Below are positions 1 through 48,633 of a DNA stretch of 48,633 bases, in pieces. The position numbers were made by a program, and so were the translations under genes. The DNA is from Ignavibacteriota bacterium (GTDB lineage Bacteria; Bacteroidota; Ignavibacteria; UBA10030), in NCBI GenBank assembly GCA_963727825.1, contig CAVSHO010000002.1:1-48633 (forward strand), in the 5' to 3' direction. The stretch's first letter is position 1. Every line of letters starts with the position of its first letter. The notes beneath the pieces were generated by a model that saw only the letters and a program-made list of their open reading frames with translations, was not told the DNA's origin and searched no databases.

Positions 1-618
1 TTCAATGGGCAGCATATTATGAATGGTGATTATGTCTTGCCGAATCCAACAATCGTAATAACGATTTATGACAGCAGCCCGTTACCAATGCAAAATCCTT
101 CGCTTGTCAATCTGACTTTAGATGACCGCAGGATTATGCTTGGTGCACAGCCGGATAGTTTATTCGAGACTAAGTCTGCGGGATCTGAAAAAGCAGTCGT
201 GACATTTAGACCGACATTAAAAGGAAGAACTGATCCGTATAAACTTATGCTGCAAGTTACAGATTCGACAGGGAACGAGGAAAATTTATCTAATCCTATA
301 TATTTTGTAGTTGACTCTGTTTGGGGGATAAGAAATGTATTTAACTATCCTAATCCGTTTGCACAGGAAACATATTTTACATTTATACTTACAGATTATG
401 CTGATCAAGTAGAGATAAAAATCTATACAATTAACGGCAGACTTATTCAAGATATTTTCTTGCCGTCTCAATCAGAAAATGCTTACTATAAAGTGTACTG
501 GGATGGCAGAGATCGTGACGGCGACGAAGTGGCAAATGGAGTATATTTTTATAAAATTATTGCAAAAAGTAATGGATTAACAAAAGAAGTAATACAAAAA
601 TTAGCTAGAATCAGATAA
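1..618 (+). CDS. C-terminal part of a large T9SS-secreted protein (Ig-like domain plus FlgD-like/T9SS type A sorting domain); 5'-truncated by the window edge
   Basis: Frame is open from base 1; NYPNPF...WDGRDRDGDEVANGVYFYKI...KLARIR C-terminal sorting-domain pattern. Confidence 0.8.
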   Translation, partial: FNGQHIMNGDYVLPNPTIVITIYDSSPLPMQNPSLVNLTLDDRRIMLGAQPDSLFETKSAGSEKAVVTFRPTLKGRTDPYKLMLQVTDSTGNEENLSNPIYFVVDSVWGIRNVFNYPNPFAQETYFTFILTDYADQVEIKIYTINGRLIQDIFLPSQSENAYYKVYWDGRDRDGDEVANGVYFYKIIAKSNGLTKEVIQKLARIR

Positions 619-627
619 AGCAAAAAA

Positions 628-1362
628 ATGGAATTCTCAGTAATTGTGCCGACATATAATGAAGAAAAACACATCGAACAATGTCTGCAATCGATTCTTC
701 ATCAAAATATAGATCGAGCAGAATTCGAGATAATAGTTTCAGATGGCGCTTCTTCAGATAAGACCTGCACAATTTCGGAAAAGTTAGTTGACAAAATAGT
801 TGTAAATGAAAAAAAGGGAGCTTCTTTTCAACGTAATTACGGTGCTCACTCTGCAAAAGGAGAGATACTGGTTTTCATAGATGCCGATACAAATCTTGAC
901 AGCAATTTTCTCGCTGTGCTAAAGGAAGAGTTTAGTGATAGAAATATTGTGGCCGTATCAGGTATTGCATTTCCATCTGATGGGAAGTTACCGCAGCGTT
1001 TTGTATATCGAGCAACATATTTATTGATGCAAGTATTACATTTTATAAATCTTTCGCTTTTCCCTGCTATGTGCGTTGCTTACCGAAAACGGGCTTTTGA
1101 GAATGTAGGGGGTTTTCGAGAAGATTTTACGACTTTAGAAGATTTGGATTTGAGCAAGCGAGTTTCAAAAATAGGATTTACAAAAATTGCGACACGTGCT
1201 CATGCATTTTCTTCCACTCGTCGCATACATAAGCATCTTGTATCAACAGTTGCATATCATATATTCTGCGATATTCGATATTTATTAACTGGAAAAGGCC
1301 CAAGGCGTTATCCAAAAGTAGAAGAATTACAATCATGGAGGGATTTGTGGAAATCGATATAA
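628..1362 (+). CDS. GT2 glycosyltransferase
   Basis: SVIVPTYNEE, SDGASSD, FIDAD and LEDLD motifs. Confidence 0.9.
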   Translation: MEFSVIVPTYNEEKHIEQCLQSILHQNIDRAEFEIIVSDGASSDKTCTISEKLVDKIVVNEKKGASFQRNYGAHSAKGEILVFIDADTNLDSNFLAVLKEEFSDRNIVAVSGIAFPSDGKLPQRFVYRATYLLMQVLHFINLSLFPAMCVAYRKRAFENVGGFREDFTTLEDLDLSKRVSKIGFTKIATRAHAFSSTRRIHKHLVSTVAYHIFCDIRYLLTGKGPRRYPKVEELQSWRDLWKSI

Positions 1363-3089
1363 CGAAACCTGCACATAACTGCTTTTGTTATTCCCGACAT
1401 ATAGTTCTTGTTTTGATACTCACACTTATTGCCAGTAGCGGTTTACATTTATATGCCCAGTCAGTATATGTCCCGCTAGGACATGAGGCGTATGATTTCC
1501 TAAAGAGGATGGAGGCACGTCAATTATTTACCGATTATAAGGATGCGGCTCTACCGCTTTCAAGAATGCAAGTAGCAACATATTTGGATGCACTTGAAAC
1601 AAAGGTAAATGATATGTCCCGTGTAGAACGTGAAACTTTCGAGTTTCTCAAAACGGAATTCAATTATGAAATAATGAAGCTTGCAGGTGATCCAGAGCCA
1701 ACAGAGACACGCTGGCATATTTATTCGTACGAGTTTGAACAAGGAGCGGCAAACTTTGATATCAATTACGGCATTTCAAGATCATTTGCAGATAAAGATG
1801 CTACCACCGATAGGGCTGTGGGATTCAAAACCTATGGATATGCTTTTAACTCACTTGGCTTTTATTTAAATCTGGATGATAACTCAACCAATGGCGATAA
1901 TCTAAATTACAGCAGGTTAAATGATAGGCAGCTTGATAATTGCACATGGCTTTCTGCTGCGGATCGAGATTATTACAAGCGTGTGAAAACACCTGACCGT
2001 GGTGTTATTCCGTCGCAAATGGATGGACCAAATCAATTTCAATTCAATGAGGCAAATGCACAATTCAGCTGGCAAGTCGGCAAGGTTACTTTATCACTTG
2101 AAAAAATGAATAATGCATGGGGATACGGCAGAAATGGAAATGTTATCTTCTCTGATAATGCTCCATCATATCCACAAATTAAAATGCGTGTTCCGATTAC
2201 AAAAAATATTGAATTTGTATATTTTCATGGCGAGCTTAACTCAAATGTCGTTGATTCGTCTCAATCGTATACCGTTACATATAGCAATCCACAATTTCAA
2301 ACATTCCGAGAAGTTGATCATCAAAAATATATTGCCGCCCATCAATTAGAAATGTATTTATGGGATGGTGTCGATTTTTCAATCGGTGAATCTATTGTGT
2401 ATTGCGATCGAGGTCCCTTGCTCATGTATTTAATTCCTGTGATGTTGTTCAAATCAGGAGAATGGTACAATAACGATAAGGACAATTGTCAGATTTTTGG
2501 AAGTCTTGATTTAAACGTTATAAAGAATGTCGATGCCTATTTGTCTCTTTTTATTGATGAGCTAAACACAGATGAATTGTTTACTAACTCTTATTTAGCG
2601 CGTGAACAGATAGCATATTCTACTGGAATACGTGTTTTTGATTTTCCGGCAACTAATCTGGATATGAATCTTGAATATACACGTGTCAATCCCGGTACAT
2701 ACAATCATAAATATCCTGCCGCCACATTTACGAATAATGGCTTTGTACTTGGGAACTGGATGGGGCAAAATGCTGACAATCTATTTCTAGAAATGGGATA
2801 TACGCCCATACATGCATTGAGGGTTACGACTTTTGGTGAAATATATCGTAAGGGTGGAACGTTGCCTATTGCGGATCAATACAAGAGTGATGAAGGGAAA
2901 ATGCCATTCTTATTCGGTCCGCTTCATGTGGAACGTTCATTTGGTATAACAACCAAGTATCAACCAATTCGAGATTTGTTTGTAAATTTTAAAGCGCGAA
3001 TTCATAGAATTGAAGATGAAGCAGACCCGACACAGAACCGTTCACATCAATTTGAATTTACCCTCGGCGCAAGCCTTGGTATATGGTAA
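1335..3089 (+). CDS. Outer-membrane beta-barrel, capsule assembly Wzi-like
   Basis: Signal peptide ending AQS; N-terminal VPLGHEAYDFLKRM helix; WGYG..G..IFSDNAP; AAHQLE; terminal aromatic residue (LGIW). Start uncertain. Confidence 0.65.
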   Translation: MEGFVEIDITKPAHNCFCYSRHIVLVLILTLIASSGLHLYAQSVYVPLGHEAYDFLKRMEARQLFTDYKDAALPLSRMQVATYLDALETKVNDMSRVERETFEFLKTEFNYEIMKLAGDPEPTETRWHIYSYEFEQGAANFDINYGISRSFADKDATTDRAVGFKTYGYAFNSLGFYLNLDDNSTNGDNLNYSRLNDRQLDNCTWLSAADRDYYKRVKTPDRGVIPSQMDGPNQFQFNEANAQFSWQVGKVTLSLEKMNNAWGYGRNGNVIFSDNAPSYPQIKMRVPITKNIEFVYFHGELNSNVVDSSQSYTVTYSNPQFQTFREVDHQKYIAAHQLEMYLWDGVDFSIGESIVYCDRGPLLMYLIPVMLFKSGEWYNNDKDNCQIFGSLDLNVIKNVDAYLSLFIDELNTDELFTNSYLAREQIAYSTGIRVFDFPATNLDMNLEYTRVNPGTYNHKYPAATFTNNGFVLGNWMGQNADNLFLEMGYTPIHALRVTTFGEIYRKGGTLPIADQYKSDEGKMPFLFGPLHVERSFGITTKYQPIRDLFVNFKARIHRIEDEADPTQNRSHQFEFTLGASLGIW

Positions 3090-3114
3090 ATGGCAGTTTT
3101 TCGCATATTTCGGT

Positions 3115-3142
3115 TAAACTTTAGCAAAATTAAACTGTCAAA
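3115..3142 (+). promoter_or_regulatory. sigmaE-type ECF promoter, probably autoregulatory
   Basis: TAAACTT-N16-TCAAA, 22 bp upstream of the ECF gene; matches the GGAACTT-N16-TCAAA pattern. Confidence 0.6.
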
Positions 3143-3164
3143 TATTTGAAATAACTTGGTATAG

Positions 3165-3722
3165 ATGACTAACTCCAATGACCTTGAACTTGTTGAATTG
3201 TTCCAAAAAGGGAATGAGACAGCTTTTAACGAATTGGTTGGACGATATCAAGAAAAAGTGTATTGGATTGCGCGCAGGTTTGTGAACGATCATGATCAGG
3301 CGGACGATATCGTTCAAGAAGTTTTTGTAAAAGTGTATAGAGCATTAAAAGAATTTCGCGGAGAATCAAGTGTCTATACATGGCTGTATAGGATTACAGT
3401 AAATGTAGCGCTGAATGCCCTTCGGAAACAGCGCATTAGAGATTTTATCCGAATTGACGAGTTCTTTGAAACTGCTGACGATGAAAATGAACAACCTGAT
3501 GCCATATTTGAAAAAGATGAACAACAGAAACTGATAGAAGAAGCAATAGCAAAACTTCCGGAGAAACAAAAAGCTGTCTTCATCCTTAGGTATCATGAAG
3601 AATTGTCGTACGATGAAATATCATTAATTCTAAAAACATCAGTAGGTGGACTCAAAGCTAATTACTTTCATGCTGTAAAAAAAATTGGAGAATATGTAAA
3701 TCGTGCACACAGAACACGTTAA
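3165..3722 (+). CDS. ECF RNA polymerase sigma factor
   Basis: Region 2 ADDIVQEVFVKVY...FRGESSVYTWLYRI; region 4 LPEKQKAVFILRY..ELSYDEI. Confidence 0.95.
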   Translation: MTNSNDLELVELFQKGNETAFNELVGRYQEKVYWIARRFVNDHDQADDIVQEVFVKVYRALKEFRGESSVYTWLYRITVNVALNALRKQRIRDFIRIDEFFETADDENEQPDAIFEKDEQQKLIEEAIAKLPEKQKAVFILRYHEELSYDEISLILKTSVGGLKANYFHAVKKIGEYVNRAHRTR

Positions 3723-4335
3723 TTATGATTTGATGGACTATGTCACAAACCGATTAAGTGCACAAGAGCGCAAAAGAGTAGAGCAGCATCTACAGAAATG
3801 CTCTAAGTGCAATAATCAGTACAATGAATTGTTAACGACAGATGCGGTTTTAAAAAAGAATCCTTTTCCAGGACCAACGTCTGTTTATTATTCTACTATT
3901 CTTCCACGACTCAGAAGACGTCTTGTTTCTCATCGCCGATCTGATTTCGGCTACAGTTATGGTACAGCGATTATTCTTCCACTTGCAGTATCTATCTTAG
4001 TTGTATTTTTCTTAATTAGAATACCTACAGAGTCTTCATCTGAAGCTGCACAAACTGAAGCGTTGCATCAAGCGGTAAAGGACTTAAACGAAGAGGAAAT
4101 AGTGCAAGCTATTGAAAAGGAATACACTGGATTAGTGCTTTCACCCAATCAAGAAATTGCCGCCGCTGGTGTTGAAGAACATCTACAAGGAGATCGATTT
4201 CTAAAATCGGCTATATCTATGCAAATCGATAACGAAGAAGTAGCAGAAATGGATATTGAAGGAATGATTTCTGATTTAAACGGAGAACAGGTTGACCAAT
4301 TGTTATCGGGACTTTCTAAAAGGAATATACTATGA
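3703..4335 (+). CDS. Zinc-finger (zf-HC2/ZAS) transmembrane anti-sigma factor
   Basis: HLQKCSKC (Hx3Cx2C), one TM helix, overlaps the sigma gene. Confidence 0.85.
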   Translation: MHTEHVNYDLMDYVTNRLSAQERKRVEQHLQKCSKCNNQYNELLTTDAVLKKNPFPGPTSVYYSTILPRLRRRLVSHRRSDFGYSYGTAIILPLAVSILVVFFLIRIPTESSSEAAQTEALHQAVKDLNEEEIVQAIEKEYTGLVLSPNQEIAAAGVEEHLQGDRFLKSAISMQIDNEEVAEMDIEGMISDLNGEQVDQLLSGLSKRNIL

Positions 4336-4817
4336 AATATATTCATGTAGTTTCTATGACTCTATTCTTAATACCAGTAGTATGCCTAAATCTTGTTGCT
4401 CAAGATAGACCCCAGATGAGGGGGCCCGCATCAGAACGCATTGAACAATTCAAAAAAGTGCGACTCATGGAAGTGCTTAAAATGGATGAAGAAACTTCGA
4501 TTCGATTTTTTACTCATTATGATAAATATGAAGAGACTCTGCACGCTATCCAAAAGGATCATAATGCATTTATCGATCAACTTCAAAAATTAATAAAATC
4601 TAGTGCTAATAATTCAGATATAGAGCAGGCATTAAAAGATATCGGAATGAGTGAAGAAAAAATCGCAGAGACACGCTTAAAATTTCTTGAAGAACTTAAG
4701 AGCATTATTTCAATAAAACAGGTTGCTGAATATGTAGTGTTTGAACGGGATTTCAATAAAAATCTTAGAGAAATAATGCGGGATATAGCGAAAGATCGTT
4801 GGAATAGACAAAAATAG
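4332..4817 (+). CDS. Periplasmic helical protein, Spy/CpxP-like
   Basis: Signal peptide, charged all-alpha sequence, ATGA overlap with the anti-sigma gene. Confidence 0.6.
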   Translation: MKYIHVVSMTLFLIPVVCLNLVAQDRPQMRGPASERIEQFKKVRLMEVLKMDEETSIRFFTHYDKYEETLHAIQKDHNAFIDQLQKLIKSSANNSDIEQALKDIGMSEEKIAETRLKFLEELKSIISIKQVAEYVVFERDFNKNLREIMRDIAKDRWNRQK

Positions 4818-4826
4818 AAAAAAGAT

Positions 4827-5762
4827 TCAGAGTGAATCGTTGAAAAGAGCATATGCGGTTTTTATCACAATGCCATAGCGTAATCCGCGATCACTCACCG
4901 TTATTTTTGACAAGTTCACTTTCCTCAATATTTCTCTAAGAATAATAATTCCTGCCAGAAGAATATCTGCTCGTGATGGATGTATTTGTGGATAATTATG
5001 TAGTTGATCCAATGTCAACGGTCTGAGTTCTTGAAATATTCTATCTATAGCATTTATCGTAAGTACATGCCCGTTTATCAGATGTCTGTCAAACTCTGGA
5101 ATCCGAAGATCAAGCGCGACTAATGTAGTTAAAGTGCCGGCAACGCCAATAATCTTTGTTATGGATGAAAGAGGAAAAATATTCTTAAGATGTTTTCGAA
5201 CAAGCTGAGATGCGTTTTCCAACGCGAGATTGCTTGGAGGACAATTTTTTAAAATCCTTTCAGTAAGCCGCACACTTCCAATATTGAGACTGATAGATGA
5301 TGTTACCTTTTCTCCCGAACCTATCACAAATTCAGTGCTACCGCCTCCGATATCAAGTACCGCAAAGTTTTTAGAACTGGCTTTTATTAGATATTCAGAA
5401 ATAGCGCCAAGATATGTTAATTCTGCCTCTTCATTTCCTGAAAGTATTCTTATTTCAAACCCGAGCTTTTCCCTTATGAAATCAATAAACTCTTGACGAT
5501 TTTCAGCATCACGGAGTGCACTTGTCCCACATACTGAAAGATGCTCGATGCCAATAGAGTCAGCAATGCTTTTGAGCTGTGAAAGAATATCATGGACGCG
5601 ATGGAAGGTCTCCTTTAGGATGACTCCATGTTCATCGACACCTTTGCCGAGCCGACCGATAAAATGTTCGTCTCTCACAACCTCAAGAGAAGCATCTCTA
5701 TGAACATCAGCAACAAGCATCAAAATTGTGTTTGTTCCTATGTCTATGGCTGCAAGACGCAT
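4827..5762 (-). CDS. ppx: Ppx/GppA exopolyphosphatase family
   Basis: MRLAAIDIGTNT, TSALRDA, EEA, DIGGGSTE, GLRYG; start moved to ATG at 5762, just after the prmA stop. Confidence 0.92.
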   Translation of the reverse strand: MRLAAIDIGTNTILMLVADVHRDASLEVVRDEHFIGRLGKGVDEHGVILKETFHRVHDILSQLKSIADSIGIEHLSVCGTSALRDAENRQEFIDFIREKLGFEIRILSGNEEAELTYLGAISEYLIKASSKNFAVLDIGGGSTEFVIGSGEKVTSSISLNIGSVRLTERILKNCPPSNLALENASQLVRKHLKNIFPLSSITKIIGVAGTLTTLVALDLRIPEFDRHLINGHVLTINAIDRIFQELRPLTLDQLHNYPQIHPSRADILLAGIIILREILRKVNLSKITVSDRGLRYGIVIKTAYALFNDSL

Positions 5763-5764
5763 TG

Positions 5765-6628
5765 TCACATTCGACGCAGTGCTATAGAAGTCCATTCGTT
5801 CTCAATGACAGTTTCTATTGGAACGAGTGCATTCTTTGTAAATAACTTGAGTAATATAGGCAGATCGCTTGTAAGAATGCCAGAAAGAATTATTATACCT
5901 TGCTTTCGTACACGTGCGGTAAGCGACGAGATAAATCGCGAGATAGCACGGAAATCTATATTTGCGACAATAAGGTCATAATTACGTTTTGGAACAATGC
6001 TGATACTTCCCAATTTAACGATCATTCTTTTTTGAACATCATTCCTTTTAATATTTTCTTTTGTGTTTTCAATTGCCCATTCATCATTATCAATTGCAAA
6101 TACTGATTCTGCTCCCAGTTTAAGACAGGCAATACCCAGAATACCTGTGCCAGTCCCGAAATCAAGTACCTTCATCTGAGGTTCGAGAAATCGTTCAAGT
6201 AAATTAAGACTTAAGCGAGTTGTTTCATGATGTCCAGTTCCAAAAGACATTTTAGGATCAATATGAAGAATTAATTTCTTGGAATAGCGCTTCGGTAGTA
6301 TTTTCCAGGATGGCTTTATAATAATATTAGTTGTTGCCTCCACAATGCCTGTTTGATTTTCCCATTTCTTGTTCCAGTTTTCTTCGTGTACTATTAAACC
6401 AGAATATGAAAGATCAAGGGAAGGAAATTCGATCTTAAATTTTGCAAGTGTCAAATCGAATTTACTTTTGAAAGCATTATTCCATTTATGCTTAGGAACA
6501 ATGCATTTAAGCAACTTATCTTCCTGAACGAAGCCCGTAAAACCAATCGGCGCCAGAAGCCCAACAAGTAAATCTTGATATTTTTCATCAATCCGAATAG
6601 CAGCCTGAAACCAGTTATGCTTTTTCAT
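5765..6628 (-). CDS. prmA: Ribosomal protein L11 methyltransferase (C-terminal part of ORF 5765-7303)
   Basis: EENWNKKW, IDPKMSFGTGHHETT, VLDFGTGTGILGI, VANI, LSGIL; internal ATG at 6628. Confidence 0.92.
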   Translation of the reverse strand: MKKHNWFQAAIRIDEKYQDLLVGLLAPIGFTGFVQEDKLLKCIVPKHKWNNAFKSKFDLTLAKFKIEFPSLDLSYSGLIVHEENWNKKWENQTGIVEATTNIIIKPSWKILPKRYSKKLILHIDPKMSFGTGHHETTRLSLNLLERFLEPQMKVLDFGTGTGILGIACLKLGAESVFAIDNDEWAIENTKENIKRNDVQKRMIVKLGSISIVPKRNYDLIVANIDFRAISRFISSLTARVRKQGIIILSGILTSDLPILLKLFTKNALVPIETVIENEWTSIALRRM

Positions 6629-35422: not shown

Positions 35423-36753
35423 GTGAATCAACAACAAAAGCTTAAAACCATAAGACGAGCAGTATTGCCTTCTTCTATACATAAAGTTGAATCGACTTAT
35501 CAAAAGTCCATTCTTCCTAACGGTGTTCGCATTGTTACGGAAGAAATCCCACATGTACGGTCACTGTCATTGGGTTTTTGGATCGAAACAGGATCACGAG
35601 ACGAGTTTCCTGCGAATAATGGAATATCACATTTCATCGAACACATGGTATTTAAAGGAACGAAAAAGAGAAATGTTAAGGAAATAGCTCAAAGTATCGA
35701 ATCAGTTGGCGGCTATCTAAATGCCTTCACAAGTAAGGAACACACTTGTTACTATGCACGAGTTCTCGATGAACATCTCGAATTGGCAACAGATGTATTG
35801 AGCGATATGGTGTTTCAACCAACATTTCCGGAGAAAGAATTTAGTAAAGAAAGAAATGTTATTCTTGAAGAGTTGAAGCAAGCTGAAGATGATCCGGATG
35901 ATATTATCCAAGATTATTTTGAGAAAGCAATTTATCAAAACCAATCCGCTTGGAATGCCGGTTATAGGCACGGCGAAATCGATTTCTTCAATTACACGCA
36001 AAGATCTTATTCAATATAGAACAGAGCAGTACACCTCTTCGAAACTTGTTGTTGCAGCAGCCGGCAACCTTAGACATGAAGATGTCGTGGAATATTCTAA
36101 GCGCTACATCCAAAAGAGTACCTGATAGTACAAGTAAAAAAGTAGAACACGATCTATCTGTTTTTGAAGAACCGAGTTCTGTGTTACACGAATACTACAA
36201 GCCGATTCAGCAAGCCCATATATGTCTGGGAACAATCGGTTTCCGAGTGCACGATGAAAGACGTTTCTCGATGCAGGTACTTAATACATTGTTAGGGGAT
36301 GGAATGAGCTCGCGGTTATTTCAGAACATTAGGGAAAAATATGGATTCGCTTATGCAGTATTCAGTTTCAACAATATGATGGAGGAAACAGGCGCTGCCG
36401 GTGTGTATATCGGTACCGATAATTCTCATGTTCAACAATGCATTGATCTTGTGTGGAAAGAATTAAAATCATTGCGTACGCAAGGCATCACAAAACAGGA
36501 ACTTGCACGCACAAAAGCACAGTTAAAAGGAAATATGATGCTGGGAATGGAAAACATACCCAACAGAATGATACGTTTAGGTAGCTCTGAATTGTATTTT
36601 GGAGAATTAATCGCACTTGACACGATTATCAATAAAATTGATGCTGTAACACGGGAAGATGTGCAGCAGATAGCGGAAGAATTGTTTAAGGAAGATCGTT
36701 TCGCAACAGTTATCTTCCATCCTAATGGCAAACACGAGACTACGACAAAATAG
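35423..36753 (+). pseudogene. M16 (pitrilysin-family) zinc peptidase split by two +1 frameshifts (about 35937-35940 and 36110-36115; likely sequencing errors)
   Basis: GSRDE, HFIEH (HxxEH), NAFT; middle piece PLGMPVIG...VAAAGN; C-terminal GDGMSSRLFQNIREKYGFAY. Confidence 0.9.
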
Positions 36754-41374: not shown

Positions 41375-42916
41375 ATGTTTTCACAAATCTTTAGCGCGGC
41401 TACATTTGGAGTTGATGCTTATCTGGTGGAAGTTGAAACACATCTTGATCTCGGGTCTCCAAAGTTTTTCATGGTGGGCTTGCCTGATAATGCAGTGAAA
41501 GAAAGTATCCATCGCGTCACAGCTGCAATTAAAAATTCTGATTTTAAATTTCCAAATCGAAAGATGACTATAAATCTTGCGCCTGCCGATGTGAAAAAGG
41601 AAGGATCTTCGTACGATTTACCGGTAGCGCTTGGTATTCTTACTGCGTCAGATCAACTTAAATCTGATGTACTAGATAAATTTGTTGTGTTAGGCGAACT
41701 AGCGCTCGATGGCGCTTTGCGCCCGGTACATGGTGCTCTGGTAATCGCGTTAGAAGCTAGAGCGAAAGGGAAGCACGGTATTTTGCTGCCCGAAGAAAAT
41801 GCGAGAGAAGCTGCAATGGTGGAAGGCATAGAAGTCTATCCTATGCGGAATTTACGCGAATCGATTGAATTCTTTGCGGGGGAACATCGCTTGCTCCAGC
41901 CATTTCGTGTGGACATGCATGAAGTGTTTTCTGAAGATCAACACTACACTGTCGATTTTGCCGATGTAAAAGGACAAGAGAGTGTGAAACGCGCGATGGA
42001 AGTGGCTGCTGCCGGCGGGCATAACATATTGCTCATTGGTCCGCCTGGTTCTGGAAAGACGATGCTTGCAAAACGTTTGCCGACCATTCTCCCACCTATG
42101 ACATTTGAAGAAGCGTTGGAAACAACCAAGATTCATTCTGTGGCAGGAATTCTGCCGCTAAATTCTGCACTCGTTTCTGTGCGCCCTTTCAGGTCACCGC
42201 ATCATACAATTTCAGATGCAGCTTTAGTAGGTGGCGGTACGATCCCGCGGCCGGGGGAAATATCGCTTTCACATCATGGAGTTTTATTCTTAGATGAATT
42301 ACCGGAATTTGACCGGAGTGTTCTTGAAGTGATGCGACAGCCACTGGAAGACAGTCATGTTACAATTAGCCGTTCTAAAATGTCAATAGACTTTCCAGCA
42401 AATTTTATGTTAGTTTGCGCAATGAACCCATGCCCTTGTGGCAATTATGGAAATTCTGCCGTGGAATGTACTTGCAATACTGGGCAAATTCAAAAATATG
42501 TCGGTAAGATCTCCGGCCCGCTTTTGGATCGTATTGATATTCATGTAGAAGTTCCAGCTGTCAAGTACAACGAATTAGCATCAAAGCGAACTGGAGAGAA
42601 TTCAAATGTAATTCGCAAGCGCGTAATAGCTGCACGTACTATGCAAGCAAATAGATTCAATGGACGAAGAGGATTGTTTAGCAATGCTGATATGGATTCA
42701 AAAGAAATCAAAGAATTTTGTCAAATAGATCAATCGGGAGCTGATCTATTGAAGATGGCGATGAGCCATCTGGGACTTTCTGCTCGTGCATATGACCGTA
42801 TTCTCAAAGTATCTCGTACTATTGCCGATCTCGATGGAAGCGTTGACATTCATCCGGAACACTTAAGCGAGGCAATCCAGTACCGAAGTCTCGATAGAAG
42901 TTTCTATGCGGTGTAG
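41375..42916 (+). CDS. comM: YifB/ComM family Mg-chelatase-like AAA+ ATPase
   Basis: VGLPD, INLAPAD..KEG, GPPGSGKT, FRSPHH, LFLDELPEF, MNPCPCG, SGPLLDRID. Confidence 0.93.
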   Translation: MFSQIFSAATFGVDAYLVEVETHLDLGSPKFFMVGLPDNAVKESIHRVTAAIKNSDFKFPNRKMTINLAPADVKKEGSSYDLPVALGILTASDQLKSDVLDKFVVLGELALDGALRPVHGALVIALEARAKGKHGILLPEENAREAAMVEGIEVYPMRNLRESIEFFAGEHRLLQPFRVDMHEVFSEDQHYTVDFADVKGQESVKRAMEVAAAGGHNILLIGPPGSGKTMLAKRLPTILPPMTFEEALETTKIHSVAGILPLNSALVSVRPFRSPHHTISDAALVGGGTIPRPGEISLSHHGVLFLDELPEFDRSVLEVMRQPLEDSHVTISRSKMSIDFPANFMLVCAMNPCPCGNYGNSAVECTCNTGQIQKYVGKISGPLLDRIDIHVEVPAVKYNELASKRTGENSNVIRKRVIAARTMQANRFNGRRGLFSNADMDSKEIKEFCQIDQSGADLLKMAMSHLGLSARAYDRILKVSRTIADLDGSVDIHPEHLSEAIQYRSLDRSFYAV

Positions 42917-43111
42917 TAACTCTAAGAGTTGTCTTGTTCGCTCACATAGTTCTCCTCTTTCTGTGGTTTATCCACTTTTATGTCAACCTATTTCAGGACA
43001 AGACAATTTTTCTGGTGCAATGTTATGTACGAAATTATAAGAGTAAAAATCTTAAAACTCTGAGACTTGTTACACTTTCATCTGTACGGATTGACTGCCC
43101 GCAACGTAATG

Positions 43112-43160
43112 GTTTAGTCTTGATGTAAAAAACCTGTGAGGTTTTCATCCAAGACCGAAC
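43112..43160. terminator. Long imperfect hairpin between convergent genes (possible bidirectional terminator)
   Basis: GTCTTGATG..AAAACCT-GTG-AGGTTTT-CATCCAAGAC. Confidence 0.5.
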
Positions 43161-43178
43161 TGATATCTTATAAAAACA

Positions 43179-44591
43179 TTAATTCTGAATGAGCTTCACA
43201 TTTCCAGATGTTGTTTCAATACTGATCGAACCATCTCCGCCTCCTATTTTCCCAACAGCACAACAACCGTCTCCGAGTGATTTCACTTTCACAGGAAGAT
43301 TGCATTCTATCTTGCCATGCGATGATTCTAATGCAACCTCGCCAGTATAACCGTGTGGCATAGTCACCGTCGCAGATCCGTCCTCGTTTTTAATTTCAAG
43401 ATGTTTGGGAAGTGATTTTAGCTCTAATTCGATTGGGTTGCTTCTATTTGTAAGAGCTATAGACTGCCCATAAATATTTGAAATAGAGAAAGAAGAATTC
43501 TCGGACTCCGATTTCCAATCACCTCTTATTTCGTTTGCCTTAACATCCGAACTTCTTGTATAAAGAGTTACATTTCCTTTAATATTTCTCAAATCTATGG
43601 ATGTATATTGACTTTCAATTTTCAAGTCTCCGGCAATATCTTCCAGCGTCACCTTATCACCAGATATTCTTTTAGTATCAAAGGGATTCGGAATATAAAG
43701 AGAGTATGTGTGTTTCAGATTATACTTCTTTTCAAGCTCTTCTTGCTCCTTTGTCCGAGCCTCTTCCAGCGTCAACTTATCTCTTCGTCCTTTGATATCA
43801 AGAGTCCCCCCAACTCGTTCCACATTGATCGTAGAATAGGTAGCGTCGATTAAGACGTTTGCCCGTGCATCTTCCACATTTACCATTTCGCTACCCTTCG
43901 ATTTGATCGTGAGATCTTTCTTTATTTTCTGCACCATAATTTTTGAGTAATTTCCATTGATGATGCCGCCGCCATCAAATTCGTCAATAGAAATGGTCGA
44001 GTTTACGGCCGAAAGAACAAAATTTCCACCGCATTGTTCCAGTGTTGTCGTTCCGTAATTGTTTTTGATCTCTTGTATGGAAGCACATTGTATGAGAACG
44101 AGATGATTGCTAGAACCGCGAAGTCGAAGATCTCCCTTCATTTTTTCCAATTTGATAGAACTAGAACTCGCATCGGTTATTAATGAGTTAGACCGTGGAA
44201 CAATAATCTCTCCGGACATAGAACGTATTATATGATCATATCGAAAAATAGCTTTGAGTATGCCCCAGAATGATAGTAATCCCGGCCATTCTTTCTGAGG
44301 ATATTTAAATGTGACGACCAAAGATGAGTCCGTACGAGATTCTTCAATTGTCGTTTCATTCACATATTTCTGTTCAAACTCTTTATCAGAGCAGTCTATT
44401 TCAGTATGTATACGTATAAACACTTCATTCTTATCCCATGAGGAGAATCGGATGTCTGAGCTACTAAAACCCCGGATATCGATTACTTGGGATGGATTTG
44501 TGGGAAATCGCTTTTCAATATCAAGCTGTTCACCGGCAATACCCAAGCTAATACAAAAGATTATAGAGAGAATCAATGTTGGTGTTTTCAT
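43179..44591 (-). CDS. Secreted DUF4097-like beta-strand-repeat protein
   Basis: Signal peptide; repeated short beta units; C-terminal VTMPHGYTGEVALESSHGKI...ISIETTSGNVKL. Confidence 0.78.
   Translation of the reverse strand: MKTPTLILSIIFCISLGIAGEQLDIEKRFPTNPSQVIDIRGFSSSDIRFSSWDKNEVFIRIHTEIDCSDKEFEQKYVNETTIEESRTDSSLVVTFKYPQKEWPGLLSFWGILKAIFRYDHIIRSMSGEIIVPRSNSLITDASSSSIKLEKMKGDLRLRGSSNHLVLIQCASIQEIKNNYGTTTLEQCGGNFVLSAVNSTISIDEFDGGGIINGNYSKIMVQKIKKDLTIKSKGSEMVNVEDARANVLIDATYSTINVERVGGTLDIKGRRDKLTLEEARTKEQEELEKKYNLKHTYSLYIPNPFDTKRISGDKVTLEDIAGDLKIESQYTSIDLRNIKGNVTLYTRSSDVKANEIRGDWKSESENSSFSISNIYGQSIALTNRSNPIELELKSLPKHLEIKNEDGSATVTMPHGYTGEVALESSHGKIECNLPVKVKSLGDGCCAVGKIGGGDGSISIETTSGNVKLIQN
43639..43781. 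repeat. 20-bp direct repeat (1 mismatch), copies 123 bp apart, inside the DUF4097-like gene
   Basis: TCTTCCAGCGTCACCTTATC at 43639-43658 and TCTTCCAGCGTCAACTTATC at 43762-43781. Confidence 0.9.
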
Positions 44592-45103
44592 AATTCAATA
44601 TCTCCCTGTTCGATCATCTTTTGAAGAATTTGTAATTTTATACTATACAGATTACGCAAGCGCGCTTGTTTTAATAAAGACCAATCATTGTGATTTGTCT
44701 CGATTCTCAATTCTTTGATCGCATTGTCCAATAGTTTTAATTGCTCTTCCCATACTTTTTTTCGACCGAGAGATTGTTGAGATTGTGTCACTGCCGGCGT
44801 CGAGATTGGTATCACACGCTCAAATTCCATAATTGCAGATGTATACGCATTATCAATCCGGACAACTGGTGGCTGTGAGCGTTCTAAAAAATCGATTGCC
44901 AAATGGTATATACCAACCGAAGAAAGATAGATGAGAATTGATGCAGCTATGCCGTATAAAAAACTTCGTCGATCTGGAATCATAAAGAGTGTCCGCTTTG
45001 CAGGATGAATTTCTTTTTGTATCTCATTCCACATCTTGTTTTGAGTCTTACTATCCGGCATATCGTCTTGGGAATAATATTTTTCCGGTCCGATCATAAT
45101 CAT
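44588..45103 (-). CDS. Putative single-TM anti-sigma factor
   Basis: MWNEIQKEI, GIAASILI TM, helical C-terminus; AGGAGG RBS and ATGA overlap with the sigma stop. Confidence 0.72.
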   Translation of the reverse strand: MIMIGPEKYYSQDDMPDSKTQNKMWNEIQKEIHPAKRTLFMIPDRRSFLYGIAASILIYLSSVGIYHLAIDFLERSQPPVVRIDNAYTSAIMEFERVIPISTPAVTQSQQSLGRKKVWEEQLKLLDNAIKELRIETNHNDWSLLKQARLRNLYSIKLQILQKMIEQGDIEL

Positions 45104-45636
45104 TTTACCTCCTTCTTCCATCTCTCTTTAAGGTTTTGCTTAGCCCTCGCTAAAATTGTTCTTGAAGTACTTTCACCGAAACCAAGCATTTCAGCAATTT
45201 CGGAATGAGAATAACCTTCAACTTCATATAATAAAAAAACCATTCGCTTATTTTCATCGAGTTCACCAAGCCACGTTTTCATCATTGTATCCCAAGCGAA
45301 TAGTTCCGCATCGTGTTCTTCAGTCGGCAAATCTTCAATTTCAGAATTATCAATTTGCAGAATTGCGGAACGCCTTCGATCCATTTTCATCTCATTCAAT
45401 CCTAACCGAAAAAGCCAAGAAGAAAATTTTGCATCTCCACGAAAAGATGGCAGATGCTCATATGCTTTAATAAAAGATCGCTGAACCCATTCTTCTACTT
45501 CAACCGAATTCTTCGAAAATTGTTTCATAAATCGAAAGAGCGAAACGACATTGGCATCATACAGCATTTTGAACGCTTTCTGATCGCCTTTCTGCGCGCG
45601 ATGTATTATAAGGATTTCGTTATCAATTATTTTCAT
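45100..45636 (-). CDS. ECF RNA polymerase sigma factor
   Basis: GDQKAF..LY, SFRGDAKFSSWLFR, VFLLYEVEGYSHSEIAEMLG...TSRTILARAK. Confidence 0.94.
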   Translation of the reverse strand: MKIIDNEILIIHRAQKGDQKAFKMLYDANVVSLFRFMKQFSKNSVEVEEWVQRSFIKAYEHLPSFRGDAKFSSWLFRLGLNEMKMDRRRSAILQIDNSEIEDLPTEEHDAELFAWDTMMKTWLGELDENKRMVFLLYEVEGYSHSEIAEMLGFGESTSRTILARAKQNLKERWKKEVK

Positions 45637-45654
45637 AAAGTCGATTCATAAATA

Positions 45655-45682
45655 AGATGCATGAGAACATTCAACCGCTACA
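45655..45682 (-). promoter_or_regulatory. Candidate ECF promoter for the second sigma operon
   Basis: Minus strand TGTAGC-N17-CATCT, 18 bp before the ATG. Confidence 0.45.
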
Positions 45683-45757
45683 GAATACATAGAAATTATG
45701 TAAAAGACGCATTCAATTGATGATAGAAAATCATCCAGTGCAGGAGTGTAGTGTAAT

Positions 45758-45781
45758 GCTTCTTGATATGTTCACCCCAGG
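45758..45781. repeat. 24-bp direct repeat, copy 1
   Basis: GCTTCTTGATATGTTCACCCCAGG; 23/24 identical to 48610-48633. Confidence 0.95.
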
Positions 45782-45854
45782 TTTGTGGGTTTTGTGATAT
45801 TTTCGTAGGTTTTAGAGCGGTCAGAGTGATCTTGCAGAATGGCAACGCAAGGAT
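45758..45854 (-). pseudogene. 5' remnant of an XRE double-HTH gene
   Basis: Translates to ILALPFCKITLTALKPTKISQNPQTWGEHIKK, then diverges; shares WGEHIKK with the copy at the window end. Confidence 0.7.
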
Positions 45855-46048
45855 GATTGTTCGGGATGACGAAGAACACTAATGTTGAATGTATAATTTC
45901 AATTAAATCCGCCTATTTAAATTTCCTCGTAACAAAAATCACTACAAGAGATTTAATAAAATACGACATCCCGCAATATTAGAATATACTATATTAAAAT
46001 GGGGTGGTATATATATTAAAATAAATTCTATAACAGGAAATTCCTCAG

Positions 46049-46077
46049 TGTAACTTCTTAGTCAGAAAGAGCGTAGT
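46049..46077 (+). promoter_or_regulatory. Candidate ECF promoter for the hydrolase gene
   Basis: TGTAAC-N17-CGTAGT. Confidence 0.5.
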
Positions 46078-46123
46078 ACTTTATAATTATTTTTGCAAAG
46101 ATTGAATAATTAAGGAATCAAAA

Positions 46124-47908
46124 ATGAAAACTAAGAACCTTCTTTTCATTATTTTTTTTATTTACAGTTATACTACTGTTGTATTTTCACAAATTAATAA
46201 TGAATCCCAAATTATTGGAAAGATTACTAATGCTCATGAAAAAATAATACGAATCGGAGAAAATACCATCCCTGTTTCTGAAACAGGAATATTTACTTTT
46301 ACAGGTAAGATAAAATATCCGATGCTGTACAATGTTTCCTATGGTAAATTAACTTGGGTTGTCTATTTAGAACCCAACAGAAAAACGGAATTAAAAATAA
46401 ACTCCGATGATTTATCGTCACTCGAATATAACGGTGATTTGATTTCTTCAAATAACTTTCTAAAAAAGACAAGCATGTTAAACCAACCTGTAAATGATTC
46501 CTTTTTTAAACTTGAAAACATTGTGCTGCTTTACAGTAAGGATAAGGTAAGCTTTATCTCGACAATTGATTCATTAAGAAAGGTTTATCTGAAACCTCTT
46601 TCCTTGATTGGGGAAGATAACGCACGATTGCCAGACACTTTTATTGACCTCTTTAAAGCTGATATTGATTTCAAGATTAACAACCTATTTCTCCTTTTTC
46701 CATTTCGACATTGGTGGGTGGGGATTACACATGAAAAAGTCATTTTAAGCAAGTCTGACCTGGATGGCATTAATTCCGAGACAATAGATAATATTGCATT
46801 GTTTGATTTATCGAGTTACAAAGAATTTTGTAAAACGTGGATTGATTATAATACTGAAAACCTGGCAACTAAAAACATCGACCATAAGAATTATTACCTT
46901 AAAAAAATGGACGCTGTTTTAGAATATCTTCCCAAAATATTCTCAAATTATGAACTATTAGACTATTGGTTATCGGAATATTTGTCGGATTTCATTCAAA
47001 AAAACGGAATGGCAAATAGTGAAAAATATGTCAAAGATTTTTGTGCAAGCTGTAAAACGGAAGTCTATAGAGCCAGGATTGAGAAACAATGCAGTTCGAT
47101 ACTTGAAGGTCAGAAGGATCACATTGTAAAAACGTACAAGATGATAAACGGATATAATTTGCAGGCACATATATTCTATCCCAATGACTTCAAAAAAGGT
47201 GAAAAACGACCGGCAATTTTAGTCTTTTTTGGAGGGGGATGGGATGATGGAAACGTTACATGGGCTTTTGGCAATGCAAAACAATATTCTAATCTGGGTA
47301 TGATTGGAATAGCGGTCCAATACAGACTTTCAAACTTACATAGAGACATAACTCCCATTGATGCTATGCAGGATGCAAAAGATTTAATGATTTGGTTAAG
47401 GATTAATTCCGATTCATTAGGAATAATAAGTAATAAAATTGCAGGATCAGGTTGGTCTGCCGGCGGACATTTGATAGCATCATCTGCTGTTTTTGCAGAT
47501 ACATTGGTTGACAAAAAAATAAATTCAATGCCCGATGTCCTTTTATTAACGTGTCCGGCTTTAGACGCAGGTCATGATGAAGCATTTAATAAACTTTTAT
47601 CTGAAACTGGTGTAGATCCTTTAAGTTTGTCTCCTGTGGAGCACGTTTATAAAGGATTACCTCCTACAATTATCTTTGCGGGTAGAGAAGATCATGTAGT
47701 GCCTTTAAAAGGAGTTCAGTTATTTCATGATAAAATGGTGGCCGATGGAAATTATAGCGAACTATGTATTTACGATAATGTCGGCCATTTGTTTACACCA
47801 TCTTATTTAGATGACAGAGGCTGGCCAAGACCGGATAAAGAAATTCAAAAACAAGCGGATGTAAAAGCTGTTGAGTTTTTAAAGAAGTTTGGATTTATAA
47901 GTGAATAA
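46124..47908 (+). CDS. Secreted alpha/beta hydrolase (esterase/lipase) with a large N-terminal extension
   Basis: Signal peptide; FFGGGW oxyanion loop, VQYRL, GWSAGGHL nucleophile, GREDHVVP, GHLF. Confidence 0.88.
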   Translation: MKTKNLLFIIFFIYSYTTVVFSQINNESQIIGKITNAHEKIIRIGENTIPVSETGIFTFTGKIKYPMLYNVSYGKLTWVVYLEPNRKTELKINSDDLSSLEYNGDLISSNNFLKKTSMLNQPVNDSFFKLENIVLLYSKDKVSFISTIDSLRKVYLKPLSLIGEDNARLPDTFIDLFKADIDFKINNLFLLFPFRHWWVGITHEKVILSKSDLDGINSETIDNIALFDLSSYKEFCKTWIDYNTENLATKNIDHKNYYLKKMDAVLEYLPKIFSNYELLDYWLSEYLSDFIQKNGMANSEKYVKDFCASCKTEVYRARIEKQCSSILEGQKDHIVKTYKMINGYNLQAHIFYPNDFKKGEKRPAILVFFGGGWDDGNVTWAFGNAKQYSNLGMIGIAVQYRLSNLHRDITPIDAMQDAKDLMIWLRINSDSLGIISNKIAGSGWSAGGHLIASSAVFADTLVDKKINSMPDVLLLTCPALDAGHDEAFNKLLSETGVDPLSLSPVEHVYKGLPPTIIFAGREDHVVPLKGVQLFHDKMVADGNYSELCIYDNVGHLFTPSYLDDRGWPRPDKEIQKQADVKAVEFLKKFGFISE

Positions 47909-48205
47909 ATACTGAGAAGAAATATCCGAACGCAAAAGAAGTCGAGGGAGAAAACTTGGTCATCTGTTGAGCAAATAGGAGCCCTTCGCTATGAATGGTC
48001 TGGCTTTAGGAACAATCGTCGAAATGGCTGACAATGAGAAGATTTTATATAAAATCAATTCTCCCTCCAAACAATTTGACATCCGACGGTGTTCCTCCAT
48101 TATTTCTTTTGTAATTGCCACCATCGTAAGCTCAAATTCATATGAATCGTTAATTCGCATTTTCTCAGTTGTAAGGTTTTGATTAGCTCATTCCTCTCAA
48201 AACAC

Positions 48206-48235
48206 GAAACCCCCATGATTTTACAAGGGGTTTTC
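48206..48235. other. Inverted repeat/hairpin next to the tRNA fragment
   Basis: GAAACCCC-CATGATTTTACAA-GGGGTTTTC. Confidence 0.6.
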
Positions 48236-48244
48236 ATTTTCGCT

Positions 48245-48271
48245 CTTGACCCTGAATCTAGCGCGTCTGCC
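48245..48271 (-). mobile_element. tRNA-Leu(CAG) internal fragment, putative att-site scar
   Basis: Minus strand GGCAGACGCG-CTAGA-TTCAGGG-TCAAG: 3' side of the D-arm plus an anticodon stem-loop with CAG; no acceptor stem or T-arm. Confidence 0.72.
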
Positions 48272-48633
48272 GAACCACAAGATAATTGATAAAGGACTGA
48301 ACTCTCCTAAGTAGATCGCCTTCAGGTTTGAACTCATCCCGTTCCCAACGTCCGAGTGTAGATGGATCGACTCCTAATCGATGAGCTAATTCTTTTTGTG
48401 TAGTTCCTTTCATCAGACGGTATGCTCTTATCCTTTGGCCAAGACTTTGAACCATAGATAAGTCAGGTTCATATCCTAAAAACTCGAGGATCTTTGGTAT
48501 TACCCATAACATAGGTTCACTATGATGTTTCTCCCAATTAGTTATCGTGGATGTGTGATGCCAATAACCTTAGCGACGACGGACTGATAGAGTCCAAGTT
48601 CTAGTCTTCGCTTCTTAATATGTTCACCCCAGG
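48258..48633 (-). pseudogene. XRE-family protein with two tandem HTH domains; 5'-truncated by the window edge, one base missing near 48556
   Basis: WGEHIKKRRLELGLYQSVVAKVIGI / TSTITNWEKHHSEPMLWVIPKILEFLGY..LGQRIRAYRLMKGTTQKELAHRLGVDPSTLGRWE. Confidence 0.85.
48610..48633. repeat. 24-bp direct repeat, copy 2 (cut by the window edge)
   Basis: GCTTCTTAATATGTTCACCCCAGG. Confidence 0.95.

Follow-up and report, generated by a model that had tools for sequence, protein, structure and literature searches.

A probable composite island at comM

The right-hand part of the window, a stretch of 48,633 nucleotides that is the entire contig C2 of an Ignavibacteriota genome (G000), very probably carries a decayed composite island of two units (42431–48633), built at one site in comM by recombination of the large serine recombinase (LSR) family and itself without an LSR gene. 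The repeat within it marks a known kind of mobile DNA, and here the recombinase gene is split by its own insertion. The features of the region are as follows.

41375–42916 (+): intact comM (Mg-chelatase-like, 513 aa; Pfam Mg_chelatase, ChlI and Mg_chelatase_C)
42431–42432 (+): TG, the first two bases of the comM Cys353 codon; putative crossover dinucleotide and left boundary of the island
43159–45735 (−): cargo block A, three genes (Pfam)
43179–44591 (−): DUF4097 protein of block A (Pfam)
44588–45121 (−): 177-aa protein of block A, without a Pfam match; ‘anti-sigma’ would be a guess from position alone
45100–45636 (−): ECF sigma factor of block A (Pfam)
45758–45845 (−): XRE-A remnant; TTG start at 45843–45845, first 29 codons (MPFCKITLTALKPTKISQNPQTWGEHIKK), then unrelated sequence
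45841–45855 (+): P arm of the recombinase site and inner unit junction; GGCAACGCA at 45841–45849, 4-nt spacer, TG core at 45854–45855
45856–46123 (no strand): AT-rich stretch in which a displaced comM 3′ fragment would be expected; weak same-register likeness remains
46059–46087: promoter-like TAGTCA-17-TATAAT ahead of the hydrolase gene
46124–47908 (+): cargo B, a secreted-looking alpha/beta hydrolase of 594 aa (Pfam BD-FAE, Abhydrolase_3)
48210–48229 (−): terminator-like hairpin downstream of XRE-B
48251–48271 (−): tRNA-Leu(CAG)-like 21-mer, overlapping the XRE-B stop codon; 20/21 to tRNA positions 17–38
48258–48633 (−): XRE-B, a double-HTH gene with its 5′ end cut by the contig end

The initial annotation had reported that the same XRE sequence occurs twice in one orientation, 2852 bp apart, and this is confirmed: GCTTCTTGATATGTTCACCCCAGG at 45758–45781 returns at 48610–48633 with one mismatch (23/24) and a spacing of 2852 nt, and two matches were found in none of 100 dinucleotide shuffles. 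The repeat is the 5′ end of a double-HTH XRE gene and the only significant repeat in the window, the inverted repeats being weak. As had been supposed, the match ends at the window edge, because the window is the whole contig, and extending it to the right yielded no continuation among the 13 other contigs of the genome. One Logan contig from run X1, which may be the source sample, reads from 48617 into 45766 (16 letters fit both sides, and the shorter side is 48), and the resemblance of the right XRE copy to the left therefore extends over at least about 32 further bases.

The contents described for the interval between the copies are also present: one AT-rich cargo gene (the hydrolase, whose region has a GC content of 0.27–0.37 compared with about 0.39–0.43 around it), the hairpin (48229–48210), and the tRNA-Leu(CAG)-like 21-mer, accompanied by an 11-mer of the same tRNA, TCATGGGGGTT. 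The right copy is a double-HTH protein, as annotated, with two HTH_3 domains by Pfam (E = 4.9e-15 for the second and 0.0071 for the cut first domain); compared with the G005 orthologue, one nucleotide is deleted near 48556/48557, and the resulting frameshift is either that of a pseudogene or an error. The candidate promoter of the cargo gene exists as a sequence match, but such matches are no commoner than in shuffles (9 found, 11.6 expected).

Islands and stacks in related genomes

In relatives within the Ignavibacteriota, islands inserted at the TG of comM Cys353 end with the XRE gene. In G005, G018 and G020, islands of ∼1.7–8 kb separate an intact comM from a displaced fragment (query residues 349–513), with XRE as the last gene and no PF00589 integrase nearby among the matches listed. 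We searched 401 genomes, of which 39 were XRE-positive, and found same-strand stacks of two to five XRE copies, mostly spaced 3–10 kb, on about 14 contigs of these, which bears out the earlier proposal that the units are stacked serially in one orientation. At 20 array loci, with four duplicate short matches dropped, the XRE start stands head-to-head against a displaced comM 3′ fragment in 19 of the 37 scored copies; no comM fragment adjoins the other 18, and two more copies lie at an edge. The comM fragments inside one array are 78–98% identical, and clear stacks of XRE right ends bounded by comM fragments occur in G319, G338, G073, G329 and G273. A locus search with a four-row XRE alignment gave five loci, four of them already known. 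The window has two same-orientation XRE right ends, but no comM fragment between them, and the outer (right) junction is past the contig end, beyond the assembled sequence.

The cargo is variable across loci, as the initial annotation anticipated, and in the stacked islands includes regulators, glycoside hydrolases, metal efflux and defence-like genes. Cargo block A is 81% identical to a segment of contig C14 of genome G008, where the context differs. The DUF4097 gene is present in one and the hydrolase in four of 15 same-genus genomes, the G005 hydrolase copy showing 86% nucleotide identity across the coding sequence only, again in a different context. No homologues of the window cargo genes were found in the other comparison loci.

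The recombinase, its attachment site and the XRE module

The LSR of this family has Resolvase and Recombinase domains and a weak Zn-ribbon match. It adjoins comM residues 1–355 at the other island end in G287, G135 and G073, and residues 65–351 in the IMG/VR locus L108; comM is simply truncated in all four of these LSR-adjacent cases. Nine LSR–XRE pairs lie on the same contig and strand in the expected order, five of them 24–35 kb apart and four 52–95 kb apart, and a close LSR match co-occurs with XRE in 11 of 12 genomes. No LSR match was found in 28 of the 39 XRE genomes, G000 included. The earlier statement that no integrase is visible in the unit holds, and the family LSR is found neither in the window nor anywhere in genome G000, where there is only one small resolvase, in a 200-aa open frame on contig C8. 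Because the LSR is absent from the window and present in relatives (G287, G135, G073, L031 and 14 metagenome contigs), we class the window as an LSR-less derivative. The description of the units as non-autonomous, comprising cargo plus XRE, is borne out in that they have no recombinase of their own, and the suggested recombinase acting in trans may be this LSR, which in relatives stands at the other island end or, in the attP form, beside XRE.

The attP form, with LSR and XRE on either side of a palindromic motif, GGCAACGCA-N4-TG-N4-TGCGTTGCC, occurs on 14 of 30 palindrome-bearing metagenome contigs and on the genome contig L031. In six of the 10 cases examined, the reading frame runs on from the LSR C-terminus into XRE; the fused open reading frames contain Resolvase, Recombinase and two HTH_3 domains, and PF00239 and PF01381 occur together in 45 of 54 database matches. 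XRE is either a C-terminal module of the recombinase or a gene downstream of it. Since fused LSR–HTH genes are found on contigs of up to 795 kb, the attP form is not always an excised circle, and none of 12 short contigs has the terminal overlap of a circular molecule.

The junctions preserve half of this motif. GGCAACGCA-type motif, four nucleotides and TG are found in 24 of 27 distinct junctions, and the window junction, GGCAACGCA-AGGA-TG at 45841–45855, is one attP half-site joined at the fixed central dinucleotide. Positions 45758–45855 are identical to the right end of the G005 island at 91 of 98 positions, with the likeness ending exactly at the TG, and in the attL/attR pairs of G287 and G135 only the TG is common with attB.

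In the mechanism that we propose, the LSR gene of the unintegrated form would run through the palindromic attP into the double-HTH XRE module, fused or overlapping. Crossover of the attP TG with the TG of the comM Cys353 codon would leave the LSR on the comM-5′ side, and XRE, whose start would now be the TTG within the P arm, would face the displaced comM 3′ end on the far side. The inner right end of the window (45758–45855) would then be XRE-A, cut to 29 codons with P arm and TG kept, and the outer right end would be XRE-B, running off the contig, each preceded by its own cargo (the ECF-sigma operon and the alpha/beta hydrolase, respectively). Lacking a recombinase and the comM fragment expected between its units, and with XRE-A truncated and XRE-B frameshifted, the island appears to be a decaying, non-autonomous remnant, and its remaining movement would require an LSR in trans or homologous recombination. 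The site, the anatomy of the junctions, the linkage of LSR and XRE, the stacks of relatives and the allele without the island are observed, whereas the order in which the units were inserted and their mobilisation in trans are inferred.

The comM locus with and without the island

A second contig of the same bin, C14, has the comM locus without the island, with C14:1–6407 corresponding to C2:36503–42909. The two contigs have 10 mismatches upstream of 42439 and dense mismatches from 42457 on, identity switching at the TG of Cys353 (42431–42432) from 99.8% in the 5′ part of comM to 86.5% in the 3′ part. On C14, comM is followed directly by a 135-aa gene, which in G005 follows the displaced comM fragment. 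The 3′ end of the C14 comM is 88.0% identical to that G005 fragment, compared with a between-species baseline of 87.5–87.7%. Both the occupied (C2) and the empty (C14) allele of the target were found, in one metagenome bin with 6.55% contamination and possibly of mixed strains; the empty site may be another strain's.

The position of the switch suggests that the last 485 nt of the window comM are an island-borne replacement 3′ end (‘c3’), and the gene would stay whole because the island supplies this foreign end. In genome G000 we found no displaced comM fragment besides the C14 allele, and tblastn gave no comM match in 45856–46123, between the window units. The DNA after the inner TG matches the start of the comM 3′ part in the same register at 7 of 20 positions, which is not significant (46% of TG sites equal that), and over 40 nt at 18 of 40 (empirical p ∼0.017, a weak signal). 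As no comM fragment lies between the units, a history of two insertions needs a later deletion or a secondary site.

We know of no mechanism that gives an LSR-less unit a seamless, full 485-nt replacement comM 3′ end. Four routes to its gain were considered: an aberrant excision, homologous insertion of the Campbell type, illegitimate recombination facilitated by homology, and an attR that acts as an attP. Of these, a homologous insertion into a host like C14 is disfavoured, since the divergence sets in at the att site.

Alternative explanations

That the window holds a single island with a locally duplicated XRE 5′ end, for example through an insertion or rearrangement that brought in the hydrolase, and not two insertions, is improbable. 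The near identity of the copies (23/24, and likeness for at least about 32 nt further), their common resemblance to the G005 type and the missing comM fragment between them are consistent with such a duplication, as is the mosaic nature of the segment, which follows from the hydrolase homology to G005 being confined to the coding sequence. However, the P arm is complete in the left copy, whose end coincides exactly with the core TG, as at a junction made by a recombinase and unlike what a random duplication should give; P-arm/TG junctions followed by unrelated DNA recur elsewhere (L062, L066, L069 and L074), and stacks with separate, diverged comM fragments are common.

The initial annotation had proposed an integron-like array lacking attC, in which an unseen recombinase captured small XRE-plus-cargo cassettes serially at a tRNA-Leu-derived site, and this we consider very unlikely. 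The 20/21 match to tRNA-Leu(CAG) with its 11-mer, just downstream of XRE-B, is not readily expected by chance (∼2e-4 by our own estimate, for a match of this type to any of 45 tRNA genes in the region), and the units are indeed stacked and without a recombinase. However, the fragment comes from the interior of the tRNA (positions 17–38) and not from its 3′ end, occurs as a single copy and is absent from 96 other loci searched; no tRNA genes or tRNA-Leu-like stretches were found in the loci scanned for them. ARAGORN found no tRNA gene in the window, and an Rfam scan of 44000–48633 (E ≤ 1) gave no match; the intact tRNA-Leu(CAG) is on another contig, C9. The features of a tRNA-targeting island, an intact tRNA gene at the boundary and a repeat of the tRNA 3′ part, are absent, and no PF00589 match is among those listed on C2 or C14. 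The unit boundaries are instead the comM TG, in the Cys353 codon, and the P arm. Attachment at a tRNA-Leu-derived site is thus largely refuted by the comM site, the P-arm junctions and the absence of the fragment elsewhere, and the integron-like array fails in that the locus has no IntI-type gene and no attC, the repeat being the coding 5′ end of XRE with a serine-recombinase attP arm.

An assembly artefact, in which the end of C2 is a strain chimera of the contaminated bin and the repeat a collapsed or misjoined variant, would fit with the 6.55% contamination, the duplication of 6.4 kb of C2 by C14, the end of the contig inside the repeat and one X1 contig that departs from the window at 45637, but is highly improbable given that other X1 contigs cover 45815–46016 (across the P arm/TG junction) and 48419–48570 (in XRE-B) without differences, that contigs of X2, possibly the same sample, match parts of the ECF operon, the hydrolase and 47903–48209, within a Logan cover that is patchy (run X3 being nearly empty), and that the junction anatomy equals that of independent genomes base for base.

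A possible role for the XRE module

The initial annotation had suggested that the double-HTH protein could be a regulator or a recombination directionality factor (RDF). Returning to the composite LSR-built island, we favour, at about even confidence, a function of XRE as a DNA-binding module by which the recombinase is regulated or given its direction; an RDF-like function is rather doubtful. Complex prediction for LSR and XRE gave scores of 0.20 and 0.23 relative to a mark of 0.32, and is counted neither way. On a tentative reading, the attP palindrome would itself encode the linker GQRN..PALPFC, and the LSR–linker–double-HTH protein might be made only while attP is intact, with integration into comM severing the HTH part and so switching activity or direction. 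By our reading, the P and P′ half-sites and the comM-3′ side half-site, B′, have TGYG at an equal distance from the TG, and the comM-5′ side half-site, B, is shifted by 5 nt. With three of four half-sites sharing this spacing, attR may act like attP and attL like attB; recombinase-less [comM-3′–cargo–XRE] circles could then be excised and re-inserted in trans. If true, this would account for the seamless comM replacements and the integron-like stacking, and would make the system a natural and simple platform on which insertions can be repeated at a single safe site, with a defined attP/attB pair for LSR engineering.

Comparison with known systems

Integrons are arrays of promoter-poor, variable cargo at one site by a conserved gene, with many units lacking a recombinase. 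The comM islands similarly accumulate variable cargo units at one site, mostly without a recombinase of their own. They differ in having no IntI, attI, attC or Pc, in units that are kilobases long with their own regulation, and in a boundary consisting of a coding gene start and an LSR half-site. In SCC/SCCmec elements at rlmH (orfX), the LSRs CcrAB or CcrC drive insertion into the 3′ end of a conserved gene, whose function is kept, and composite islands in tandem include pseudo-SCC elements that have no ccr and are mobilised in trans. The comM islands share the functional conserved gene and the tandem islands without recombinase; the recombinase clade, host phylum and target differ, and SCC has short direct repeats and is not known to have a split recombinase gene.

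LSRs that target comM-type genes have been reported as common: of the LSRs predicted to be site-specific, 12.4% target the Mg-chelatase/ATP-dependent-protease (comM-type) gene, and LSR targets are enriched in competence genes (Durrant et al. 2022, PMC10083194). The recombinase class and target gene family are the same here. Compared with the elements in the available part of that paper, most islands here have no LSR and leave comM whole through a foreign 485-nt 3′ end, the islands form stacks, and the attP site is found within the LSR gene or at its end, where a double-HTH module follows.

The ssrA-specific islands of Dehalococcoides are tandem, downstream of a single-copy conserved gene; the 3′ end of the DsiB LSR overlaps attL, 16 of 31 islands have an integration module, and the authors suggest that the recombinase is perhaps complete only on the circular element (McMurdie et al. 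2011, PMC3146451, which also mentions SCC elements). The tandem islands, an LSR 3′ end at the att site and many units without an integration module resemble the present case. The target differs, being ssrA with a 20-bp repeat there and a protein gene with a 485-nt replacement here; the available part of that paper describes no XRE/HTH module across attP, and a second, small serine recombinase, DsiA, is not seen here. In the SSV-type ‘suicidal’ tyrosine integrases of archaea, the recombination site is inside the integrase open reading frame (PMC7253208), and integration cuts the recombinase gene in two, as here. In those archaeal tyrosine recombinases, as far as the available part of that source describes them, the catalytic protein is destroyed, whereas here the serine core is whole and only the C-terminal double-HTH part is severed.

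In the literature searched, we did not find an attachment site in the linker between a recombinase and a double-HTH module, a position in which insertion splits the gene, nor mostly recombinase-less comM islands with a foreign 3′ end (as in the 401 genomes sampled here), nor stacked comM islands with highly variable cargo, on which the supplements of PMC10083194 may bear. For annotation, orphan ‘XRE’ genes beside comM fragments can be read as island ends.

Repeat structure of the right end of the window

The window comprises the entire contig C2 of a 14-contig metagenome bin (G000), and its right end carries two copies of an XRE (double-HTH) gene sequence in the same orientation, as the initial annotation had described. 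The repeated 24 nt (45758–45781 and 48610–48633, 2852 nt apart) are identical at 23/24 positions, had no equivalent among 100 shuffles, and lie on the minus strand inside the 5′ part of the gene. The right copy (XRE-B) encodes two HTH_3 domains and, compared with its closest orthologue, lacks 1 nt near 48556/48557. The left copy (XRE-A) is reduced to a TTG start and 29 codons (MPFCKITLTALKPTKISQNPQTWGEHIKK), after which the sequence is unrelated. Between them, as the same annotation listed, are a low-GC α/β-hydrolase gene, a terminator-like hairpin and a tRNA-Leu(CAG)-like 21-mer (20/21). We read this end of the window as two units:

Unit A
42431–42916, apparently foreign 3′ end of comM
43159–45735, ECF-sigma operon block
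45758–45855, XRE-A remnant (minus strand) and P arm (the XRE-side half-site)
Unit B
AT-rich stretch
46124–47908, hydrolase gene
hairpin, then the tRNA-like piece
48258 to past 48633, minus strand, frameshifted XRE-B, leaving the contig

A single Logan contig from sequencing run X1, which may itself be the source sample, passes from 48617 back to 45766, so the right copy stays like the left for at least ~32 nt more. X1 sequence also matches the ECF sigma gene to its start codon (window 45637) and then continues for 251 nt unlike the window, placing the ECF operon in a second context in the sample.

Both cargo blocks belong to the accessory genome: 4/15 same-genus genomes carry the hydrolase gene, the copy in the relative G005 being similar over the coding sequence only and in a different context; the DUF4097 gene of the ECF operon occurs in 1/15, and the operon block is 81% identical to that of G008. 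The tRNA-like 21-mer, present in a single copy, corresponds to an internal part of a tRNA. A chance match is improbable (rough expectation ~2e-4 for such a match to 45 tRNA genes in the region), but the 21-mer is absent from 96 other loci, and a further locus scan found nothing similar. The piece is not a trait of the island family.

comM is the insertion site

A tRNA-derived attachment site had also been proposed; comparison of two alleles within the bin places the site in comM instead. Positions 36503–42909 of C2 are duplicated in positions 1–6407 of a second contig, C14, with 98.9% identity overall across the nuo–comM region, which suggests that two strains or a close relative were co-binned (bin contamination 6.55%). 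There are 10 differences upstream of 42439, and mismatches become dense from 42457. Identity is 99.8% over the 5′ part of comM and falls to 86.5% over its last 482 nt, the switch being located in the codons for CPCGNYGN. In C14, comM is directly followed by a 135-aa gene, which in G005 comes after a comM 3′ fragment that has been displaced. Identity between this fragment and the C14 3′ end is 88.0%, the same level as the 87.5–87.7% found when the comM 5′ parts of the two species are compared. C14 therefore looks like the empty site, and the C2 island carries a foreign comM 3′ end of its own.

XRE homologues (60–71% identity) are present in same-genus genomes, and the relatives with islands are named as Ignavibacteriota or Bacteroidota metagenome-assembled genomes. 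In G005, G018 and G020, XRE lies at the end of a 1.7–8 kb island with a complete comM on one side and, on the other, a displaced piece of comM that starts at query residue 349; G009 yielded no comM 5′ part and G015 no displaced fragment. The cargo is as variable as had been anticipated, differing in every relative compared: a histidine kinase with a LytTR regulator and GH10 and GH8 enzymes; an RND pump with a cation-efflux protein; a 23S-rRNA-IVP protein; a cNMP-binding protein. In G005 (L004/L022) and G018 (L008/L025), the XRE frame is open for ~60 codons further upstream, antisense to the displaced comM fragment, which makes the ORFs 206 and 208 aa long; the extension could be fortuitous or could encode a longer product in integrated islands.

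Anatomy of the attachment sites

The island ends on the comM-5′ side (attL) and comM-3′ side (attR) of G287 and G135 share with comM only a TG, positions 1 and 2 of the Cys353 codon. The XRE-side arm reads GGCAACGCA-N4-TG, with the TTG start of XRE within its reverse complement, and the full palindromic attP reads GGCAACGCA-N4-TG-N4-TGCGTTGCC. Of 27 distinct junctions, 24 have TG at +5/+6 after the motif; the other three, from ~25-kb elements with a different target, have a common alternative core. Elements of ~24–26 kb at L090–L093 and L096 (G135:C2, G048:C3) carry XRE and a large serine recombinase (LSR; ~64% identical) at opposite ends, with the junction GGCAACGCG-ACCT-AA-CCCATTCAATCC and no comM nearby. 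They form a sister lineage directed at a different target, and one has a second gene for a putative serine recombinase of 601 aa.

In the window, the motif lies at 45841–45849 and TG at 45854–45855. The left copy is identical to the G005 island end at 91/98 positions, the likeness ending exactly at 45758 and at TG. No comM fragment was found after this inner TG, where there is a weak same-register likeness to comM (18/40, p ~0.017; translation ..G...N.NVEC versus CPCGNYGNSAVEC).

Three half-sites have TGYG at +5 to +8 relative to the core; on the comM-5′ side it lies 5 nt further out. This spacing suggests that attR may behave as attP and attL as attB, an equivalence that would let LSR-less circles move in trans.

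Two junction types stand apart. At L043 (G143:C2, 400–1923), a 507-aa ORF joins comM residues 1 to ~355 in frame to a full XRE module via TG-N4-TGCGTGGCG on the same strand, apparently an opposite-orientation insertion yielding a ComM–HTH chimera. At L066 (G048:C3, ~113.5–114.3 kb) and L049, head-to-head XRE genes flank a complete palindrome, motif-N4-TG-N4-TGCGTGGC, which simple insertion does not predict.

The recombinase and its fusion to XRE

No tyrosine integrase was found near the islands among the matches listed. In G287, G135 and G073, an LSR with Resolvase and Recombinase domains adjoins comM residues 1–355, convergent with comM; in G135 an XRE remnant and comM 3′ part lie 25.6 kb from it on one contig. 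Use of the comM site extends well beyond this class: on an IMG/VR contig from a GC-rich organism (L108, 5929–8329), an LSR sharing 53% identity with the family adjoins comM residues 65–351.

Across 401 genomes of the class, an XRE-family HMM was positive in 39 and a close LSR match was present in 12, of which 11 also have XRE; the LSR match was absent from 28/39 XRE genomes, G000 among them. Nine LSR–XRE pairs lie on one contig and one strand in the expected order, five 24–35 kb and four 52–95 kb apart. On a 6.6-kb contig (L031), the LSR stop overlaps the XRE start. Scanning metagenome contigs for the palindrome yielded 30, with LSR and XRE on opposite sides in 14, XRE only in five and neither in 11. 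In 6/10 attP-form loci parsed (five others were left out), XRE is read in one uninterrupted frame with the LSR C-terminus (...CYLP..GQRN..PALPFC...), and 4/6 of these frames include the catalytic domain. Two fused ORFs (663 and 646 aa) each contain Resolvase, Recombinase and two HTH_3 stretches, and 45/54 database proteins matching the C-terminal part have both PF00239 and PF01381. Five fused proteins (P0019, P0027, P0036, P0044 and P0046) are encoded on contigs of 183–796 kb, two being Patescibacteria MAG proteins by name, so the intact attP form can reside in chromosomes; such long contigs fit tandem elements with attP internal.

Beside the LSR at L082 (G287:C8, 1–3219), the cargo has putative P-loop kinase-like, radical-SAM-like and 249-aa exonuclease-like proteins, which by their sequences would resemble a defence module.

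Literature on comM with serine recombinases, split integrase genes, and Ignavibacteria with serine recombinases yielded no closer parallel, and the comM island is thus a variation on known LSR islands. SCC composite islands and the self-disrupting SSV-type integrases of archaea (PMC7253208) are further parallels. According to Durrant et al. (2022, PMC10083194), 12.4% of predicted site-specific LSRs target a Mg-chelatase/ATP-dependent-protease gene. McMurdie et al. (2011, PMC3146451) describe tandem Dehalococcoides ssrA islands whose attL is overlapped by the 3′ end of the LSR gene; an integration module is present in only 16/31 of them.

Stacking and decay of islands

In each of the four cases with an LSR (4/4), comM is simply truncated; without the LSR, comM is complete and has a foreign 3′ end. 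In G073, the LSR element lies inside a comM whose earlier 3′ end was by then the start of an older unit, so repeated insertion at the comM-proximal site is an observed route to stacking. The step that first gives a unit a comM 3′ end was not seen. Capture of units one after another, as initially proposed, is supported by the stacks in relatives, at a site in comM and not at a tRNA-derived one.

The window island is a decaying, non-autonomous remnant, since no LSR of the family was found in its genome, in line with the recombinase-less unit first described, XRE-A is cut short and XRE-B is broken.

Same-strand sets of 2–5 XRE copies occur on ~14 contigs from the 401 genomes, mostly spaced 3–10 kb, and many of the matches extend from residue 1 no further than ~80–100. 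Among 20 fetched array loci, 19/37 scored copies are head-to-head with a comM 3′ fragment start and 18/37 are not (two further copies lay at an edge; four duplicate short hits were dropped). The comM fragments inside one array are 78–98% identical, and so were not copied in place. Class-wide, N-terminal-only XRE matches (70–100 residues) number ~24 versus ~4 C-terminal-only, an excess that reflects either preferential retention of 5′ ends along with the P arm or the existence of single-HTH variants.
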